This document shows, in pieces, positions 52,269 through 64,000 of a DNA stretch of 64,000 nucleotides (positions within the stretch are counted from its first letter, which is position 1; every line of letters starts with the position of its first letter). The stretch is from an uncultured Acidimicrobiales bacterium (GTDB taxonomy: Bacteria > Actinomycetota > Acidimicrobiia > Acidimicrobiales > SHLQ01): assembly GCA_937922235.1 (NCBI GenBank), contig CAKZVC010000027.1:11968-75967 (forward strand), written 5' to 3'. Under the pieces are notes generated by a model that worked only from the letters and a program-made list of their open reading frames with translations, was not told where the DNA came from and ran no database searches. The position numbers and the translations under genes are program-made.

Positions 52269-54212
52269 CTACTCGCCGTCGCCGCAATCGGAGAGGAAGA
52301 TCGTGATCACATTGCCTGGCTGGAGCTCAGTTCCTTGCGGTGGATCGGTGCCAACGACTGGGCAGCGAGCGTTTCCAGGCGCGCCATCGGTGGTGAGAAG
52401 CTCGCCGGCAAGGAAACCGTCCGCAGTGAGCGCATCAAGAACGTCGCCGAGCGGCTGCCCAGAGGTGGCAGGAATCGCAATCGGAACCGGACCTTGCGAG
52501 ATGACGACCGTGACAGACTCGCCCTTATCGACAGCAGTTCCCGGTGGCGGTGTCACCGACACGATCACGCCGAGTGGCACCTCGTTGTCGAACTCCTCAA
52601 CGCGGTTCACCGCCAAGCCAGCAATGTCGAAGTTGGCGAGGTACTCCTCGACGTTTGTGTCGAGTGCGAAGGCTGGGATCTCGCGCTGCGATGGGCCAAG
52701 GCTGACCACCAAGTCGACGGGCTCGCCGGTCTGCAGTTCAAGCGCTGCAGCACTCACGGAGATCACGTTTCCGGCGCCGACGTCTTCGTTGTTGACCTGC
52801 TCGACAGTACCCACCGTGAGCCCTATGGCTTCGAGCGTTTGCTCGGCCTGCTGCCGGCTGCGCCCAATCAGATCATTGTCGGGCACGCGCACGAGTGGGC
52901 GTCCGAGCGAAATCCAGTAGTCGAGGGTTTGGTCTTCTTCGAGCAGCTGACCTGCTTCAGGGGCAGTCTTGACAATATTGCCGGCAGGGATTTCGGCGTC
53001 GCGCAGGAACTTCTCGCCGAGAATCCAATCGTCGCCAAGCTCGGCGATTGCGTCTTCTGCAGTCATTCCGACAACGTCGGGGACTGGCTGGCTCAACAAC
53101 GCTGCGTTCGAGAACTCGCCGTAGGCGAAGTAGCCAATGGCTCCGAGGGCGACAAGGGAGACGAGTAGCCAAGGCCACCGTCGAACCGGCTCGTCATCGT
53201 CGTGCGGCGATGGCTCGACGATCGGGGTGCCTGCGAGTTCGGTGACTTCGGGCTGGTCCATGACGGTCACGTCGAGCTCGTCAGGAGCGTCGACGATCTC
53301 GATGTCTTCGGCCTCGAGGCCGACCAGAGGCAGTGGCTCCGGACGCGGCATGCCATCGGCTGACTTCACCAAGCCAACACCGGCTTGGTTCGACGTTGGG
53401 CGCACGTCGGGGTCGCGTTGCGTCATGGCCCGCAGTACTTCGGCCAACTTCTCCGACACATCGGGAATTGGCACGTCGCTCTCGACTCGAGCAGTGAGCG
53501 TGCCAAGCATGGTGTCGGCCGAGAACGGAACCGAACCGCTCAGTGCCTCGACCAGAATGAGGCCGAGCGAGTACACATCGGACGATGCGGCGAGCCGCAT
53601 GCCCTGTGCTTGCTCGGGCGAGGCATAGCGGGCGGTGCCGACAAGGTCCTTGCCAGGCTCGGTCCAACCGGAATCGGCCAGCGCCTTCGCCAACCCGAAG
53701 TCGGCAATGTTTAGACGACCTTCGCTGTCGAACAGCAGGTTTGCCGGGGTGATATCGCGATGCACGAGCCCTTCACTGTGGGCATAGTTGAGGCCGCGGC
53801 AGGCATCGAGGCCTACCTGGATGACCTGGCTCGGGCTCAAAACGTTGCCGTCGTCGAGCAACGACCGCATCGAACCACCATCGAGTAGTTCCATAACGAG
53901 GTACGGCATGACGATTTCGCCGGATTCGTCCTCGCCCCAGTCGTACACCGCCATCACATTGGGGTGGCTCAGTGCCGCTGCCGCACGGGCCTCGTTGCGA
54001 AAGCGATCGAGAAACGCCGGGTCGCTCGACAGCTGAGAATGCAAGACCTTGACGGCCACATTTCGCTCAAGAGAAAGGTCGGTTGCCTCAAAAACCGTGG
54101 CTGATCCGCCCTGCCCAATCTTGCGCAGGAGGCGATAACGACCGCCAAGCTCATCGCCCGGTGCAGCACCGGTTGGCGATGGGCTCGCTGAGGTTGTTGG
54201 AGTTGAGGCCAC
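52269..54212 (-). CDS. Transmembrane Ser/Thr protein kinase with extracellular PASTA repeats (PknB-like)
   Basis: Kinase motifs GQGGSATV, VAVK, HRDITPAN and DFG. One TM (WPWLLVSLVALGAIGYFAY). Four PASTA-like units (VPDVVGMTAEDA...). Confidence 0.9.
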   Translation of the reverse strand: MASTPTTSASPSPTGAAPGDELGGRYRLLRKIGQGGSATVFEATDLSLERNVAVKVLHSQLSSDPAFLDRFRNEARAAAALSHPNVMAVYDWGEDESGEIVMPYLVMELLDGGSMRSLLDDGNVLSPSQVIQVGLDACRGLNYAHSEGLVHRDITPANLLFDSEGRLNIADFGLAKALADSGWTEPGKDLVGTARYASPEQAQGMRLAASSDVYSLGLILVEALSGSVPFSADTMLGTLTARVESDVPIPDVSEKLAEVLRAMTQRDPDVRPTSNQAGVGLVKSADGMPRPEPLPLVGLEAEDIEIVDAPDELDVTVMDQPEVTELAGTPIVEPSPHDDDEPVRRWPWLLVSLVALGAIGYFAYGEFSNAALLSQPVPDVVGMTAEDAIAELGDDWILGEKFLRDAEIPAGNIVKTAPEAGQLLEEDQTLDYWISLGRPLVRVPDNDLIGRSRQQAEQTLEAIGLTVGTVEQVNNEDVGAGNVISVSAAALELQTGEPVDLVVSLGPSQREIPAFALDTNVEEYLANFDIAGLAVNRVEEFDNEVPLGVIVSVTPPPGTAVDKGESVTVVISQGPVPIAIPATSGQPLGDVLDALTADGFLAGELLTTDGAPGNARCPVVGTDPPQGTELQPGNVITIFLSDCGDGE

Positions 54213-54862: not shown

Positions 54863-57811
<2,949 letters not shown>

Positions 57812-57835: not shown

Positions 57836-58468
57836 TTAGTCGACGAGCTCGATCTTGGTCCACGCCCCGACATAGATCGGTGTTCCAGGTGTCAGGCTCA
57901 TTGGCCTGCCCGGAGTCAACGGGTCGGGGCTGTCCCCCAAGAACGTGCCGTTGGTCGAATCGAGATCGGTGATCGTCCAACCGCTGGCACCACGATGCAA
58001 GCGGCAATGGCTCGACGAAACCGCAGGGTCGAGGTCGAGATCGATCTCGGGGAACGTGCCCCGAGTGTCGCTCTGACGCCCGATCAGGATGTCGGTTGGC
58101 GGCAGCACGATCGTGACTGGTTCAGGCAGCTTCTCGGGCGGCTCGACGCCGGAGAACTTCATGCGTTCGAAGAACTCGAGATCGACCGTCACGATCGCCC
58201 GACCCGACGATCCGCCAGCAGGAACCTGAGGCACAACCTCTTCGGGCAACGTGCCCGACAAGAAGTCGTAACCACAGTTCTCACAAAAGACATCGCCAGC
58301 TGCATACGTCTCGCTGCAGTTCGGGCAACTCAGCCCCGCCTCACCTAACTCGGCTGCTTCCTCTTCAGGTTTCGGCGCCGGAGGTGTCGACCCTCCTCCA
58401 AGCGACTCGCCACAGACCGAGCAGTAATCCTCCCACTCGGAATCGTGGCCGTTCGTACAGGTCGTCAT
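57836..58468 (-). CDS. FHA domain protein with two N-terminal zinc ribbons
   Basis: CTNGH...CSVCG and CPNC...CENCG, then FHA (ILIGRQSD...SSSHCRL...WTITDLDSTNGTFL). Confidence 0.8.
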   Translation of the reverse strand: MTTCTNGHDSEWEDYCSVCGESLGGGSTPPAPKPEEEAAELGEAGLSCPNCSETYAAGDVFCENCGYDFLSGTLPEEVVPQVPAGGSSGRAIVTVDLEFFERMKFSGVEPPEKLPEPVTIVLPPTDILIGRQSDTRGTFPEIDLDLDPAVSSSHCRLHRGASGWTITDLDSTNGTFLGDSPDPLTPGRPMSLTPGTPIYVGAWTKIELVD

Positions 58469-58470
58469 AA

Positions 58471-59760
58471 CTAGCTCTTCCGCTCGACGCGAACCGTTCG
58501 GGTCGAGCGAACGTCGAGGGCCATTTCGTCTTCGGCCGCAACCGCACGCTTGAGGCGAACTGTTCCGGTCTTGGGATCATCGACATCGACGACCTTTTGC
58601 AACAGCCGAACGGTGCTGTCGTTGCCAGCTTCGTGAGCGATCTGCACGGCACGTCCGAGCTTGAGCGTGGCGCCCTTCTCGTCTCCCGCCTGACGGGCAG
58701 CAAGCCCGTCGTGAATCGCATCGGCGAGCTCGGCCTGGCCGGTGTAGTGGGCGACCTCACGGTTGATGCGGGTACTGAGCGCATCGTCGTTGGTCCAGAT
58801 CGCACGCACGAGCGCGACCGGCTCGGCCTCACCATTTACGGCGAGCATGACGCGAGCCGCCAGACGCTCATCGCCGACGCCTCCCGTCGGGATGGCGATG
58901 CGAACGTGATAGTCGCGGCTCTCTTCACCCGACCACGAACCCAACGGGTAGTCGCGTGAAAGCGCATCGACCGCTTCGCTCTTGCCGGTCATATCTTCGA
59001 GGTTCGGCGACACCTGCTTCACGAACTGGATCTCGGATCCCTTCGGTGTCCACAGACGAAGTGCCACGTTGGCGACCTGCTTCGCCATGGTCTTCTGGGT
59101 GAGCTCGCGAAATGCTTCTTCCATCTGCCCGGGGCTCGGGATGATGTCGGTTGTGCCGAGGAGAGCGTTCGAGATCTTGCGAAGCTCGTCTGGCTCCCAG
59201 CTAGTGCCGAGGCCACGACAGTCACACTCGAACAGGCCAACCGCGTCGGCGATCGCAGCATCGAGCTCCCACGGCTGTTCGTGTTCGTTGCGACCATCGG
59301 TGAGCAGAATCACGTGGGCGATCGAGTTCTGATGCCCTTGGATTAGTTGCGTTGCGCCTCGAAGCCATGAGCCAATGGCCGTGCCGCCATCTGCGTAGAT
59401 TCGACCTGCCGCTTCTTTGGCTTCGTTGATCGTGCGGGCATCGGCAACGGCAAGGCCGCCGCTGGTCGGGTAGAGCGCCCGTGCCTGGTGGTTGCCGGCG
59501 ATGACTGCGAACAGCGTGCCGGGTTCGAGCACATCGAGCGCGGCGATCGTTGCGTCACGGGCGGCCCGGATCTTCGCACCGCCGTCCTCGTTCATCGAGC
59601 CCGACACATCCACCGCAATGACCTCGACGATCGGCACGTTCGCGGCTGTCTGCACGCCGGCCTGATCTTCCGATGACGTCACGGTAACGACCGCGTCGAC
59701 GACGTTGCCGCCCTCGGGGAGGTACTCGTTCTGGAATACGTTTGCGCTGAACTGCGTCAC
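58471..59760 (-). CDS. von Willebrand factor A domain protein
   Basis: MIDAS DVSGSM...T...D pattern with a helical C-terminal extension. 429 aa. Confidence 0.8.
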   Translation of the reverse strand: MTQFSANVFQNEYLPEGGNVVDAVVTVTSSEDQAGVQTAANVPIVEVIAVDVSGSMNEDGGAKIRAARDATIAALDVLEPGTLFAVIAGNHQARALYPTSGGLAVADARTINEAKEAAGRIYADGGTAIGSWLRGATQLIQGHQNSIAHVILLTDGRNEHEQPWELDAAIADAVGLFECDCRGLGTSWEPDELRKISNALLGTTDIIPSPGQMEEAFRELTQKTMAKQVANVALRLWTPKGSEIQFVKQVSPNLEDMTGKSEAVDALSRDYPLGSWSGEESRDYHVRIAIPTGGVGDERLAARVMLAVNGEAEPVALVRAIWTNDDALSTRINREVAHYTGQAELADAIHDGLAARQAGDEKGATLKLGRAVQIAHEAGNDSTVRLLQKVVDVDDPKTGTVRLKRAVAAEDEMALDVRSTRTVRVERKS

Positions 59761-59772
59761 GTCAGGCTCCTT

Positions 59773-60846
59773 CTACTCAGGCTTTTCTGTTGGGACGATC
59801 ACGACCGTGGTGTTGTCGTGCCCTCCCTGTTCGTTTGCGAATGCGACAAGTGCTTGGGCGAGCTCGACTCCGGCGAGTCCGGGCTGCGCGCTCCGGAGAC
59901 GGTTGAGGAGCTCAGCCAGTTGGTCCTCTTCCGGCACGTACTTCCACAGCCCGTCGGAACACCCGAGAAGCTGACCGCCTGCGTCGTGTTCGACCATCGA
60001 GATGCTGGGTGTGGCGTCGGTGGCATCAGCGCCGAGCCAGCGGGTGATGCTGTTCTCGAAGACGTCATCGGTCGTGAGCTGGGTGACGGTGAGTGCGCCA
60101 TCGACTTCGTGAATCCAGTAGGCCCGGCTATCTCCGAGCCATGCGTGCCAGGTGCGCACGATCGATGGGTCGCTTGGGTCTGGGGCTAGGACCGACGCCA
60201 CGATCGTGGTGGAGGCTGGGCCGTCTGAGCCGGCTCCGGTTGGGACAGACGCCGCAGCTTCTTGAGCGGCGGCGACCGCCGTAACCAGTGCGGCTTCGAT
60301 GTCGGTGTTTCCACCGTCGAGTGTTTCTTGCAAGCTGTCGCGGGCTGCCGTAGCGGCAGCCAACGAAGCGTCTTGAGGGTCGTTGGTGGTCGATACGCCG
60401 TCGCACACGATCGAGATCACGCGGTCACCGGATTGACCAATGGCATAGGCATCTTCGTTCTGATGGTGACGAAGACCGCGATCGCTCGCGGCGGCGATGG
60501 CGCCGAGCATCTCGTTCTGATGGTCGCGTTCGCCCGGTTGCTTCCGGCCGCAGTTCCCGCAGTAGCCCTCGACAATGTCCTCATGCGCTGCGCCGCAATC
60601 GATGCAGGGAGGGCCCGATAGCGCCGCATGCTCGCCAGCGAAGTCGGCCCCACAGGCCTCGCACCACGAGGCGCCAGGAGCTCCGAGCTCACCGCAGGCA
60701 GGACAGGTTTGCGACTCGGTCACCTCAACTGTCGGCATGACGACTGCCTCGGCCACACCGCTTTCTGCTTCAAATGCTTCGGAGACAGGAATCGACTCGG
60801 ACGCTTCGCTCGGTTCGGCGGCTTCGGGGGTGGGGGTGTCAGACAT
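59773..60846 (-). CDS. PP2C-family Ser/Thr phosphatase with two N-terminal zinc ribbons
   Basis: CPACG...CEACG and CIDCG...CGNCG, then RGLRHHQNEDAY...CDGVS...GGHDNTTVVIV. Confidence 0.85.
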   Translation of the reverse strand: MSDTPTPEAAEPSEASESIPVSEAFEAESGVAEAVVMPTVEVTESQTCPACGELGAPGASWCEACGADFAGEHAALSGPPCIDCGAAHEDIVEGYCGNCGRKQPGERDHQNEMLGAIAAASDRGLRHHQNEDAYAIGQSGDRVISIVCDGVSTTNDPQDASLAAATAARDSLQETLDGGNTDIEAALVTAVAAAQEAAASVPTGAGSDGPASTTIVASVLAPDPSDPSIVRTWHAWLGDSRAYWIHEVDGALTVTQLTTDDVFENSITRWLGADATDATPSISMVEHDAGGQLLGCSDGLWKYVPEEDQLAELLNRLRSAQPGLAGVELAQALVAFANEQGGHDNTTVVIVPTEKPE

Positions 60847-60851
60847 AGGGC

Positions 60852-63431
60852 TCAGAAGAGTGACGGCACGCGGACCTGGTTGGCTTTATCAACAAGTTCG
60901 AATCGCTCTTCGGCGGTTTCAGCGATCCGAGCCAAATCTCGGTAGGTCTCTTCGAGGCTTCGGCGAAGTCCCTTTGCCGTGAGTGGATTGCCAAAGACCT
61001 GTGAATTCTCATCTTCAGGCATGGCTCCCGATTCGATGCCCCGAAGCGCTCCTTCGAGCACTTCTGCGGCGAGCTTCGCGCGGGCTGCACCGTCGATGCG
61101 GGCAGCCTCGATCGTGGCCGATGCAGCCTCTACGTCGGCGGCGTTCGGTGCGGCGTCATCGGCAGTACCAACGAGCACTCGGGCCGACGCAACCTGCGCT
61201 TCGGTGTAGGTAGCCGAGCTTGGCGGAACTGCCCGGTAGGCGTCGACGGCGCCCTTACGGTCGCCTGAGGCGGCACGGCACCGGGCCAGGCCGAATGCAG
61301 CCGATACATAGCCCGAATCGACACCGATGACTTCGGCATACAGGTCGGCGGCGCGTCCGTATTCGCCAGCCAGTTCGGCTGACAGCGCAACGCCGAGCTT
61401 CGGTGCCAGCTCACCCGGCACTTCGGTCCATACCTGACTGAACCCTTCGGCGGCTGATGAGGCCGCCTCGGGCGTCTCGTGGCGCAGCTTCTCGAGCGAT
61501 CGGTACCAGGTGACCCGCCAGTCCCAGGGGTCGAAGTGTTCGACGGCTCGAAGCACATCGTTTGGTGCGCCGCCCGAGTCGATGAGCTCGCGAGCTCGCC
61601 GAAGTCGAACCTCGACCGAGTCGGGTGCGGTTCCTGCGGTGAGACCTTCGTCGATCAGACGAATGGTCGCAGCGGGGTCGAGCTCGGGAAGGTCGTAGAG
61701 GAAGGCTGCGCCAGGATCTTCTGGCGAGACCTTTGGCGTTGGCAACGCCCGCCAGTCAGCGTCGTGGATCGTGTCGTCTTCGAGCATGATGCCGGCCAAG
61801 CGGTCGCCGCCGAAGAGCGCGCTCGTGGTTGGTCGGGGCGAGCGTTGGCTGATCGCCACGATCTCGCGAAGCACCCCGAGGAGCTGGTCGCCCATCTCGT
61901 CGGCGGACTGGAATCGGTCGTCGGGGTGGGTGGCGGTCGACTTGAGAAGGAACCGGTAGAACGATTCCCATTCGTCGAAAAGCGGTTCGTCGGCCGGAGA
62001 TGGCAGGCCGTACTGGAATTCGCCTTGATGGAACACGAAGTTGAGACAGAGGACCGCGAGCGTTCGTCCTACGGTGAACAAGTCGGACGAGATCGAGGGT
62101 CCCATCTCGGCTACCTCGGGGGCCTGGAAGCCCTGGGTGCCGAAGATTGCGGCCGAGTTGTCGTTCGCCTGCATCACGCCGCCAACGTCGATCAGCTTTA
62201 CGCCGTCGCCAACCGCCATCATGTTGGCCGGCTTCAAATCGTTGTACACCAAGCCCTGACCATGCAGGTATCCCAACGCGGGAAGGACACCGAGGATGTA
62301 CGAGATCGCTTCGGTGACGGGCAGCGGGTCTGGCCTTCCGCCGTTGGCCTTGCGTCGGTCTTTGAGCTTGGAGACGAGCGATTCGCCGCCCACGTACTCC
62401 ATGACGATGTAGCCGGCGCCGTCCCAGGTCACGAAGTTGTAGATGTTGACGATGCTTCCGTGCTCGATCTGGGCGAGGAACTGGCGCTCGGCAACCGCAG
62501 AGGCAACGGCGTCTTCGTCGTCTTCGTTGAGGAGCCCTTTGAGCACAACCCAGCGGTTCGATACCGCGGTGTCTTGTCCGAGGTAGATCCAGCCCATACC
62601 GCCGTGGGCAATCGGGCCAAGGATCTTGTACTGACCGCCAACGAGCTCACCGGCCTTGAGCTTGGGAGCGTTGGTGGTGAAGTCGAATCGGGTTCGGCAG
62701 TTGTTGCAGAAGCCTTTCACCCGCCCCTCGACGTCGTTGTGTGAGCGTCCGACTTCTTGCTGGCACGACGAGCAGAACCGTTCTTCCTCCGGCGTTTCAC
62801 CAAGGACGCTTTCGATCTTCTCTTCTGACATGACTGCCAAGGTCGGGTCGCCCGCGGTCGTGGGCGCAATGTGCACCAACCCCGCACCCAGCTCGGCGCG
62901 GCTCGAGGTGCTCCGCATCGTTCGGGTTCGTCGACTGTCGCCCCCGCCAACGACACGGGTCGCCGTTGTGGGCGAAACTGGGACGGCGATCGTTGCCGTT
63001 GCGGTTGACGACGACTCGCTCCCCTTCGACACCGGCCCAGAGGCCTTGGCCGAAGGCGGGCCCGAGGTCGTTGGCGCAGTACGAGCGGTTGGCTGCATAC
63101 CGCACGTGTCGCAGTAACCATCGCCCGCGACCGTGCCGTCGCAGCCGAGTTCGGTGCAGCTCGCTCCCGATGCCGCTGATGAGGCAGGCGCTACCTTCGC
63201 AAACGATGCTGCCGGCGGCGGTGGCGATGGCGAACCAATCCGTCCACCCTGACGCCCCGGAGGAGGAGGCATCTTGCTTTGCGTCTGCGCCCCGCGAGGT
63301 GGCGGGGGCGGGGTTGCTTGAGGCGTTGGCGTGTGCGTTGCCGGGATGTGTTTGCCCGCGTACCCGCACGTGTTGCAGTAGCCGTCGGGCGCAATGCTTC
63401 CGTCGCATCCCAATTGCGTGCACGCATTCAT
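60852..63431 (-). CDS. Ser/Thr protein kinase with N-terminal zinc ribbons, Pro-rich linkers and C-terminal TPR-like region
   Basis: Two near-identical ribbons CT(Q/E)LGCDG..A.DGYC(N/D)TCG plus CSSC...CNNC. Kinase core (GGMGWIYLG, VVLK, YNDLKPAN, DVG). Helical-repeat C-terminus. Confidence 0.85.
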   Translation of the reverse strand: MNACTQLGCDGSIAPDGYCNTCGYAGKHIPATHTPTPQATPPPPPRGAQTQSKMPPPPGRQGGRIGSPSPPPPAASFAKVAPASSAASGASCTELGCDGTVAGDGYCDTCGMQPTARTAPTTSGPPSAKASGPVSKGSESSSTATATIAVPVSPTTATRVVGGGDSRRTRTMRSTSSRAELGAGLVHIAPTTAGDPTLAVMSEEKIESVLGETPEEERFCSSCQQEVGRSHNDVEGRVKGFCNNCRTRFDFTTNAPKLKAGELVGGQYKILGPIAHGGMGWIYLGQDTAVSNRWVVLKGLLNEDDEDAVASAVAERQFLAQIEHGSIVNIYNFVTWDGAGYIVMEYVGGESLVSKLKDRRKANGGRPDPLPVTEAISYILGVLPALGYLHGQGLVYNDLKPANMMAVGDGVKLIDVGGVMQANDNSAAIFGTQGFQAPEVAEMGPSISSDLFTVGRTLAVLCLNFVFHQGEFQYGLPSPADEPLFDEWESFYRFLLKSTATHPDDRFQSADEMGDQLLGVLREIVAISQRSPRPTTSALFGGDRLAGIMLEDDTIHDADWRALPTPKVSPEDPGAAFLYDLPELDPAATIRLIDEGLTAGTAPDSVEVRLRRARELIDSGGAPNDVLRAVEHFDPWDWRVTWYRSLEKLRHETPEAASSAAEGFSQVWTEVPGELAPKLGVALSAELAGEYGRAADLYAEVIGVDSGYVSAAFGLARCRAASGDRKGAVDAYRAVPPSSATYTEAQVASARVLVGTADDAAPNAADVEAASATIEAARIDGAARAKLAAEVLEGALRGIESGAMPEDENSQVFGNPLTAKGLRRSLEETYRDLARIAETAEERFELVDKANQVRVPSLF

Positions 63432-64000
63432 GACTGCCCACCATAGGTCGCGAGCTGGGCTGCGAACTTATCGATCAGCTCCAACGCTCGCCCAAGATCG
63501 GTCGGACTCGTGTGGAGTTCGTCGTGGGCAAGCTGGCCAATTGCGGCGATTTCGGCTGGCAAGCCACCGGACATATCCGCCTTCACCCGATACGCCTGCA
63601 GGCGGCCACGCAGCTCGTTGCGTTGATGAATCGGTGACGTGTTCACGTCGAGTGCTTTGGTGAGTTGCTCGCGCAGACGGGTGGCCGAGTGATGCCACGT
63701 GTCGAGGTCGCGTCGGGCCTCTTGCCACTCGCGGGTTCCCGAGGTGGCGTCACCAACAATCTGGGCCGCACGATGAGCGAGTCCGTTCTGGCCATCGATC
63801 ACCGAGGTTCCGGGCACGCGAATGAGGCCCTTGGGCGGAATGACCTTGGCCTCAGCTTCGGAATACGCTGCCGCGGCCCGAGCTCGAAGGACTCGCAAGT
63901 CGGCAAGGACCCGATCGGTTCCTTCCAGGTCAGAGTCGAGGCTGCTGTGTGCCGATTCGAGCTTGCCAGCGGCGGCCGCGGCAGCCGCCACCAAGTCATC
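63428..64000 (-). CDS. Coiled-coil protein of unknown function, probably partial (continues beyond the right edge)
   Basis: ATGA overlap with the kinase start. The frame is still open at position 64000. The track start at 63994 is only a TTG. Confidence 0.5.
   Translation of the reverse strand, partial: DDLVAAAAAAAGKLESAHSSLDSDLEGTDRVLADLRVLRARAAAAYSEAEAKVIPPKGLIRVPGTSVIDGQNGLAHRAAQIVGDATSGTREWQEARRDLDTWHHSATRLREQLTKALDVNTSPIHQRNELRGRLQAYRVKADMSGGLPAEIAAIGQLAHDELHTSPTDLGRALELIDKFAAQLATYGGQS

Follow-up and report, generated by a model that had tools for sequence, protein, structure and literature searches.

The right-hand end of the DNA analysed here, a 64,000-nucleotide stretch from an uncultured Acidimicrobiales bacterium (the window; G000:C27:11968-75967), carries a five-gene minus-strand operon whose kinase has the domain composition of PknG. 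We consider it likely that an extended PknG signalling operon is present here in its Acidimicrobiales form, and that it serves core signalling rather than anti-phage conflict. A first-pass annotation, made from the letters alone, had recorded five tightly packed minus-strand genes with gaps of 2-12 nt or an ATGA overlap, and all five were recovered as open reading frames (ORFs) at those positions. The gene kinds that it named (a helical or coiled-coil protein, an 859-aa kinase, a PP2C phosphatase, a vWA protein and an FHA protein) were borne out by Pfam and by an AlphaFold2 model of the helical protein. Its further suggestion that the genes form a "ternary" conflict-type system was not upheld: the kinase has a PknG TPR C-terminus, the locus lacks an effector gene, PADLOC gave no match to the vWA, FHA and helical proteins, and the cluster keeps its synteny on the ligA side. 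The five genes, in transcription order, are as follows.

63428..64000, minus strand: 3' part of the gene for helical protein CC407 (ORF; the gene runs on to window-equivalent 64651, L002 6396-7619)
60852..63431, minus strand: PknG-family Ser/Thr kinase, 859 aa (Pfam and PDB 2pzi matches)
59773..60846, minus strand: PP2C phosphatase, 357 aa (PP2C_2 and DZR)
58471..59760, minus strand: ArnB-like vWA protein, 429 aa (VWA_3 and VWA_3_C)
57836..58468, minus strand: ArnA-like ribbon-FHA reader protein, 210 aa (FHA and Zn_ribbon models)

The junctions, in the same order, are an ATGA overlap between the helical-protein and kinase genes and then intergenic distances of 5, 12 and 2 nt. Ahead of the vWA start lies a Shine-Dalgarno-like AGGAG, no terminator-like site was found inside the operon on the minus strand, and a promoter scan found no promoter. 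The contig was extended past the window end to complete the first gene, as the first-pass annotation had proposed; the completed protein has 407 aa, and no effector gene was present. Because the extended contig held no additional same-strand gene upstream of the helical-protein gene, the operon consists of five genes.

PknG is a well-studied bacterial Ser/Thr kinase that acts on central metabolism in Corynebacterium and is a virulence factor of M. tuberculosis. The kinase of the operon matched PknG_rubred (PF16919, E=2.6e-16), Pkinase (PF00069) and PknG_TPR (PF16918, E=2.7e-69). Its residues 181-859, from the rubredoxin module to the C-terminal end, aligned with PDB 2pzi (PknG) at E=1.6e-129, with the catalytic Lys, Asp and DxG matched. 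The parts run in the order two N-terminal zinc ribbons, Ser/Thr/Arg-rich linker, rubredoxin module, kinase domain and PknG TPR domain; the C-terminal repeats first described as TPR-like matched PknG_TPR. The modules flanking the kinase domain map as follows.

63363..63422, minus strand: kinase zinc ribbon 1, residues 4-23 (CTQLGCDGSIAPDGYCNTCG), of the 'DGYCxxCG' type
63099..63158, minus strand: kinase zinc ribbon 2, residues 92-111 (CTELGCDGTVAGDGYCDTCG)
62676..62903, minus strand: PknG rubredoxin-like module, residues 177-252 (CSSC...CNNC, 220-245; PF16919, E=2.6e-16)
60867..61751, minus strand: PknG-type TPR domain, residues 561-855 (PF16918, E=2.7e-69; aligned to the TPR domain of 2pzi)

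The PknG_TPR (PF16918) gene is single in this genome, and also in other Acidimicrobiia and in Actinoplanes genomes; Nocardia has two. On these domain matches, the kinase is the sole PknG orthologue of its genome. The rubredoxin module was kept in every PknG orthologue, in the cluster or outside it, and every cluster-linked kinase with the motif LGxGLV had a Ser/Thr/Arg-rich linker ahead of that motif. The pknG genes of Mycobacterium and Corynebacterium lie together with those for GlnX and GlnH, and the kinase acts there on the 2-oxoglutarate node, which it controls via GarA/OdhI (PMC6069109, PMC9769921); in this studied pathway, binding of the FHA substrate is stabilised by phosphothreonines of the N-terminal region of PknG (PMC9769921).

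A corresponding sensor was found just past the window end, where three genes (window-equivalent about 64508-68427) are divergent from the operon.

L002 7476-8945, divergent from the operon: GlnX-family sensor (NF058618, NF041460)
L002 8952-10091, divergent from the operon: PotD/PotF-type twin-arginine translocation (TAT) lipoprotein (SBP_bac_8; TAT signal and lipobox)
L002 10133-11395, divergent from the operon: pyridoxal phosphate (PLP) decarboxylase (NCBIfam)

The sensor, which has four transmembrane segments and two loops of ~140 aa, matched NF058618 (E=4.2e-66; 223.8 bits, with the cut-off at 250) and, at E=4.9e-28, NF041460, the equivalog for PknG-activating GlnX. It also matched the gene upstream of cluster-free mycobacterial-type pknG, i.e. 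the gene in the glnX position. No ATP-binding cassette (ABC) permease gene was seen at loci with gene calls; the binding protein therefore looks like a partner of the sensor, as GlnH is. The decarboxylase belongs to group II, and its best NCBIfam model, L-2,4-diaminobutyrate decarboxylase, was matched far under the cut-off. The three genes were syntenic in the Acidimicrobiia loci long enough to show them. Nocardia and Streptomyces-like loci, where examined, encoded a GlnH-type binding protein (SBP_bac_3) instead. This Acidimicrobiia-specific swap suggests a different sensed ligand; because the binding protein is PotD/PotF-like, the ligand in Acidimicrobiia may, by analogy, be a polyamine or diamine rather than Asp/Glu.

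A candidate for the substrate of the pathway is encoded outside the window.

G000 contig C16:50936-51259 (L072 1489-1980), minus strand: GarA/OdhI-like FHA protein, 163 aa

This protein scored 141.7-141.9 bits, relative to an OdhI cut-off of 200, and its gene lies in gcvH-garA-merR synteny. We take this gcvH-garA-MerR-type arrangement to be that around garA in M. tuberculosis. The protein has an N-terminal Cys4 ribbon (CPACNHRNDLGANFCSSCG) and no ETTS acceptor motif, and the same combination was found in other Acidimicrobiia and related metagenome-assembled genomes (MAGs). GarA-like proteins of Streptomyces-like genomes have both the ribbon and ETTS, those of Nocardia and Mycobacteriaceae-like genomes have ETTS and no ribbon, and those of Actinoplanes have no ribbon.

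Comparison with the GlnH-GlnX-PknG-GarA/OdhI pathway (PMC6069109, PMC9769921) showed several points of agreement: a rubredoxin-kinase-TPR protein that is the sole member of its family in the genome, an adjoining four-transmembrane GlnX-family sensor with an orphan solute-binding lipoprotein, and a GarA-like gene in gcvH-garA-merR synteny elsewhere in the genome. However, the locus described here has four additional conserved operon genes (for the helical protein, PP2C, vWA and ribbon-FHA proteins) and two additional zinc ribbons at the kinase N-terminus. The binding protein is of the PotD/PotF type (SBP_bac_8) and not of the GlnH type (SBP_bac_3), and a PLP decarboxylase gene comes after it; the genes on the sensor side are read divergently and are not co-transcribed with the kinase; and the GarA-like protein has a ribbon and lacks ETTS. 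Literature searches covering full texts outside subscription journals found no paper linking PknG to vWA, PP2C and FHA partners.

The added vWA and FHA genes resemble a known phospho-switch of archaea. The vWA protein contains VWA_3 and VWA_3_C and is laid out as a vWA domain, a beta-sandwich and a C-terminal helical domain. Its MIDAS (metal ion-dependent adhesion site), which had been called intact at first inspection, is indeed so: DxSGS, GGTA and LLTDG were invariant in 21 orthologues. Residues 4-427 matched PDB 4fx5 (Caci_2163 of Catenulispora) at E=4.3e-116, and on this alignment the protein is a 4FX5 orthologue. 4FX5 has the tripartite build of the ArnB paralogue vWA2, consisting of a vWA domain, a beta-sandwich of eight strands and a C-terminal four-helix bundle, with MIDAS intact (PMC6509490). 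The C-terminus of the vWA protein ends in TGTVRL and RSTxTVRV, both invariant among orthologues. These are candidate phospho-sites, each of the form pT-x-x-V/L; a Thr with a hydrophobic residue at +3 is the usual geometry of an FHA ligand.

The FHA protein has two zinc ribbons, which a variable Pro/Ala/Glu linker joins to the FHA domain at residues 125-207. The phosphothreonine-binding residues G130, S151, H154 and N173 and the ribbon Cys/His residues were invariant among 11 orthologues, and R131 was nearly so. A PDB search with a single sequence gave ArnA only at E about 0.1, and significance required the orthologue profile. With the profile of the 11 orthologues, ArnA entries 8s05_C (E=3.4e-11) and 5a8i (E=7.3e-11) ranked second and third, above GarA/OdhI. 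The CxxC-x10-CxxC spacing of the second ribbon equals that of ArnA C21/C24/C35/C38. The linker was very free in length while ribbons and FHA domain were fixed, because the FHA protein of the Streptomyces-like loci L067 and L070 has 588 aa (L067 13480-15246), with a long Pro/Gly-rich linker from the ribbons to the FHA domain.

ArnA is a zinc-finger and FHA protein (PMC6509490). In the 2026 ArnAB co-crystal 8S05, the ArnA zinc finger lies in the groove between unphosphorylated ArnB's beta-sandwich and C-terminal domain; following phosphorylation by ArnC, the ArnA FHA domain clamps onto phosphothreonines of the ArnB C-terminal domain (PMC12852372). In domain architecture, the vWA and ribbon-FHA pair matches this ArnB/ArnA switch. 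As in ArnA-ArnB of Sulfolobus acidocaldarius, a gene for a tripartite vWA protein adjoins a gene for a protein with N-terminal ribbon and C-terminal FHA domain, and there are ties to Hanks-type kinases, to a Ser/Thr phosphatase and to nutrient status. Unlike that system, the pair described here is bacterial, has its kinase and phosphatase in the same operon and themselves ribbon-bearing, has a PP2C rather than a PP2A phosphatase and two ribbons in the FHA protein, and has no archaellum to serve. Sequence identity to ArnB is marginal (~20% reported for the vWA-domain segment of 4FX5 against vWA2).

The PP2C phosphatase, which contains PP2C_2 and DZR (double zinc ribbon), resembles Stp1/IreP-type models, and its PDB matches include 2j82 and PstP. 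Its ribbons and those of the FHA protein are placed as follows.

60547-60705, minus strand: two N-terminal Cys4 ribbons of PP2C, residues 48-100, ahead of the catalytic domain
58271-58459, minus strand: two ribbons of the FHA protein, residues 4-66 (ribbon 1, C-x3-H...CxxC; ribbon 2, Cys4)

Kinase, PP2C and FHA protein were thus each headed by zinc ribbons, as the first-pass annotation had stated; each has two, and the rubredoxin of the kinase is a third metal module. The near-duplication of the kinase ribbons was also seen again in the comparison of CTQLGCDGSIAPDGYCNTCG with CTELGCDGTVAGDGYCDTCG. By eye, the ribbons fall into two types. 'CPxC...[FW]CExCG' comprises PP2C ribbon 1, FHA ribbon 2 and the GarA-like protein; '...DGYCxxCG' comprises the kinase copies, PP2C ribbon 2 and, with a His, FHA ribbon 1. 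The kinase ribbon duplication is probably old, its similarity being held by constraint, because the positional difference between ribbon 1 and ribbon 2 (GSIA vs G[ST]VA) is common to several orthologues.

An N-terminal kinase ribbon was present in all 21 cluster-linked orthologues, in 1-3 copies each, and the PP2C ribbon cysteines were kept in 21/21. For the first-pass annotation, loss of the ribbon cysteines would have spoken against a docking handle; instead, they were invariant in all orthologues examined, from Acidimicrobiia to Streptomyces-like genomes, Actinoplanes and Nocardia. PknG copies outside the cluster keep the rubredoxin module and lack the N-terminal ribbons, even in Nocardia genomes that have both paralogues. 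It is plausible that the shared ribbon is a docking handle, as the first-pass annotation had proposed, and the vWA protein the likely hub, because the ArnA zinc finger docks on ArnB (PDB 8S05) and PknG outside the cluster has no N-terminal ribbons.

The operon also encodes helical protein CC407, whose complete form is cytoplasmic and all-helical, with no transmembrane segment. The AlphaFold2 model (predicted local distance difference test score, 91.8) consists of nearly all long helices and a small beta insert, so that the label "coiled-coil/helical" is fair. The protein had no Pfam, NCBIfam or PADLOC match, and 37 family members gave coiled-coil noise only; a Foldseek search of the model against PDB gave nothing significant, the best match being EzrA (E=0.24). 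A TelA-like relation was considered and dropped, there being no TelA model among the Pfam matches. The family is large (2140 representative clusters at E<=1e-3), and even homologues at only 24% identity had their genes immediately upstream of PknG-PP2C-vWA-FHA. In the public gene call (P0001), this protein has 367 aa and begins 40 codons downstream of the start of the 407-aa frame. The 407-aa frame, with a GTG start, is probably right, because the first 40 residues are conserved in orthologues; the TTG start listed for the GlnX ORF (L002 7476) would then be too early.

Loci were compared by tblastn with the window proteins. Acidimicrobiia loci that were long enough showed the complete set: the genes for decarboxylase, binding protein and GlnX flank one side, and those for the helical protein, PknG, PP2C, vWA and FHA proteins the other. 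The vWA identity in these loci (74-93%) tracks that of the adjoining LigA (76-89%). Most Actinoplanes and Streptomyces-like loci had the genes for sensor, helical protein, PknG, PP2C, vWA and FHA in colinear order on one strand, and in Nocardia a sensor-like membrane protein, a GlnH-type solute-binding protein and a helical protein occupied matching positions. A pattern scan gave at least 589 species with a vWA orthologue, including Streptomyces, Streptacidiphilus, Streptosporangiaceae, Pseudonocardiaceae, Actinocrinis, Solirubrobacterales and Acidimicrobiia. Eighty loci were kept; where the flank sufficed, PknG was present in 70/70 and PP2C in 76/77. Judged by gene order and homology, three classes of Actinomycetota share the conserved core of helical protein, PknG, PP2C, vWA and FHA.

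An even sample of the phylum (401 genomes) contained 12 genomes with both VWA_3_C and PknG_TPR, nine with PknG only and none with vWA only. In 12/12 carriers, VWA_3_C lay ~3 kb downstream of PknG_TPR on the same strand, and all nine PknG-only genomes belonged to one Mycobacteriaceae-like family. From these counts, the cluster is patchy across the phylum yet strictly tied to PknG. The first-pass annotation had accepted that a conserved syntenic position with a known core role would count against conflict. Such a position is largely what was found, because the anchor, PknG, is a known regulator of central metabolism.

These counts also bear on the strongest alternative, namely that two systems share one operon: PknG and GlnX would work in mycobacterial style, and PP2C, vWA and FHA proteins would form an independent ArnAB-like switch with its own output (e.g. 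development or envelope), for which PknG is one kinase of several or is unused. Such separation has precedents. ArnA and ArnB of Sulfolobus are served by kinases encoded elsewhere (PMC6509490), and Mycobacteriales use PknG without vWA, PP2C or FHA partners. In Deinococcus radiodurans, according to the abstract of a preprint (bioRxiv 10.64898/2026.01.23.701218), the operon DRA0331-DRA0334 likewise combines genes for vWA, Ser/Thr kinase, FHA and PP2C proteins, and push-pull control via FHA docking is proposed. Its kinase is an unrelated one. As described there, its phosphatase bears a KI-FHA domain, not zinc ribbons; the abstract mentions no PknG-type kinase, GlnX sensor or helical partner, in contrast to the operon described here. 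However, gene order and tight or overlapping junctions were retained across classes, vWA without PknG occurred in 0/401 genomes, and the N-terminal kinase ribbons co-occur with the partners and are lost in the partnerless paralogue of the same Nocardia genomes. We therefore regard two independent systems as unlikely, and prefer a single extended PknG operon.

The history of this extended operon was examined with a maximum-likelihood PknG tree of the region from rubredoxin to C-terminus, unrooted and without outgroup. Cluster-free PknG copies were sister to the Nocardia cluster-linked copy (100/98 support). This pair grouped with the Streptomyces-like cluster copies, and Actinoplanes and Acidimicrobiia lay on the other side. 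If the root is placed at the class split that separates Acidimicrobiia from the others, the topology agrees with vertical descent and a duplication in Mycobacteriales; one copy would have lost its partners afterwards. The cluster appears to be vertically inherited, and a reduced derivative is the best reading of the three-gene glnX-glnH-pknG arrangement seen in Mycobacterium and Corynebacterium.

In two Nocardia genomes (L056/L057 versus L065/L066), the short locus retrieved for one PknG paralogue showed no cluster partner; the second paralogue sits in the full sensor-binding protein-helical protein-PknG-PP2C-vWA-FHA cluster. This pair is a natural test of what the partners add.

The conflict reading requires separate consideration, since the word "ternary" has been used for different systems. 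What Kaur et al. 2020 call "ternary systems" are MoxR-vWA-VMAP modules, with a MoxR AAA+ ATPase, a VMAP protein and variable effector domains fused to the vWA protein, and these authors name an actinobacterial theme of kinase, PP2C and vWA only in passing, tied to GAP1-N2 GTPases (PMC7159879). Membership in MoxR-vWA-VMAP was rejected: AAA+, VMAP and effector domains are absent from all five proteins. The first-pass annotation probably meant the TerY-P triad, which PMC11090510 describes as a TerY-like vWA protein, a PP2C and a kinase that bears a zinc ribbon or OB fold at its C-terminus.

A TerY-P-like or other anti-phage module, in which vWA, PP2C and kinase act as a phosphorylation switch that triggers defence, is in our judgement very unlikely. 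The operon does resemble the triad (Anantharaman et al. 2012, as summarised in PMC11090510): vWA, PP2C and Ser/Thr kinase are encoded together, zinc ribbons are present, an FHA protein is added here, and TerY-P-like modules are reported to be anti-phage. A CHAT protease gene also adjoins the cluster in one distant locus. However, the kinase ends in the PknG TPR domain, not in a zinc ribbon or OB fold, and its ribbons are N-terminal; on this and the PADLOC result, membership in TerY-P was rejected. PADLOC gave no match for the vWA, FHA and helical proteins, and matched the kinase and PP2C over their catalytic domains only. Unlike TerY-P, the locus has no Ter, restriction or defence genes nearby, and effector and mobile-element genes are absent. 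It is stable and apparently vertical, keeping its position beside ligA in most Acidimicrobiia loci examined with a vWA protein about as conserved as LigA. Moreover, the cluster is single-copy and strictly tied to the PknG orthologue and GlnX sensor of its genome.

A cell-division or cell-wall module of the FhaA/FhaB-PstP-PknA/B kind is scarcely credible: among NCBIfam models the FHA protein matches FhaB/FipA best (41.7 bits, where the cut-off is 125), the PP2C is Stp1/PstP-like and a PASTA-like kinase gene lies 3.6 kb off (52269-54212), but all FhaB/FipA- and Stp1-type scores are far under the family cut-offs, rodA, pbpA and pknA/B are absent from the operon, the operon kinase is soluble and PknG-type rather than a PASTA kinase, and ligA and other genes intervene.

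For the extended PknG operon we propose the following mechanism, inferred by analogy with the studied systems. An extracytoplasmic ligand, perhaps a polyamine or diamine, would bind the solute-binding protein, and GlnX would pass the signal over the membrane to the PknG TPR domain, with the helical protein maybe serving as adaptor or scaffold. Active PknG would then phosphorylate Thr residues in its own N-terminal linker and in the vWA C-terminal domain (TGTVRL and RSTxTVRV being candidates). The FHA protein, pre-tethered to the vWA hub by a zinc ribbon as ArnA is to ArnB, would clamp the phosphothreonines, turning a loose complex into a tight one. The ribbon-tagged PP2C would be recruited to the same hub and reset it. 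The output probably includes the ribbon-bearing GarA/OdhI-like FHA protein, which would control the 2-oxoglutarate node.

A bolder version of this scheme can be offered only tentatively, and we lean against it at present. The zinc ribbons would be addressing tags by which kinase, PP2C, FHA reader and, in this organism, the GarA-like substrate as well are docked on the vWA protein; in its ancestral form, the PknG pathway would be a scaffolded ArnAB-type complex with writer, eraser and reader, of which the mycobacterial three-gene pathway would be a stripped-down remnant; and the Acidimicrobiia input would have been rewired from Asp/Glu to polyamine/diamine by way of a PotD/PotF-type binding protein that is paired with a decarboxylase.

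Several results weigh against the extended PknG operon as we interpret it. The binding protein is SBP_bac_8, PotD/PotF-like, and not GlnH-type SBP_bac_3, so the input differs from that of the studied pathway, and loci L006, L007 and L078 have the five-gene core without an adjoining sensor or binding protein. At the output end, the GarA-like protein scored 142 bits against 200 and is missing the ETTS acceptor motif; its ribbon does not track the cluster, GarA of both Actinoplanes and Nocardia having none. The sequence similarity of the FHA protein to ArnA is modest, the likeness of the vWA protein to ArnB is at fold level only, through 4FX5, and no relative of known function could be recognised for the helical protein. 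Since the tree is unrooted, the ancestral state is argued by parsimony only.

If the ancestral and most widespread form of PknG works within such an operon, the pathway has unstudied core parts. The archaeal ArnA/ArnB switch would gain a bacterial counterpart with a cognate kinase, and the structural-genomics protein 4FX5 would gain a functional context. The binding-protein swap in Acidimicrobiia suggests that one transduction chain can be re-aimed at different ligands.

Outside the operon, ligA lies at 54863-56893 (minus strand). A 308-aa multi-transmembrane protein without family match is encoded at 56885-57811 (plus strand), convergent with the operon and overlapping the ligA start; this gene and ligA were syntenic with the cluster in most Acidimicrobiia loci examined. 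The PASTA-like kinase gene mentioned above (52269-54212, minus strand) is separate from the operon and encodes a PknB-like Ser/Thr kinase of 647 aa with a transmembrane segment, its C-terminal region being PASTA-like by eye. Signalling genes flank the cluster in two distant loci: a CHAT protease gene in one, and genes for BTAD/AAA regulators, one of them with an FHA domain, in the other (L078, 34-1941, and the contig of P0068). One locus, L013 (JBLIMK010000044.1), from a MAG labelled Verrucomicrobiales, carries the cluster with 79% vWA identity and Acidimicrobiia synteny including ligA; this contig is probably mis-binned.

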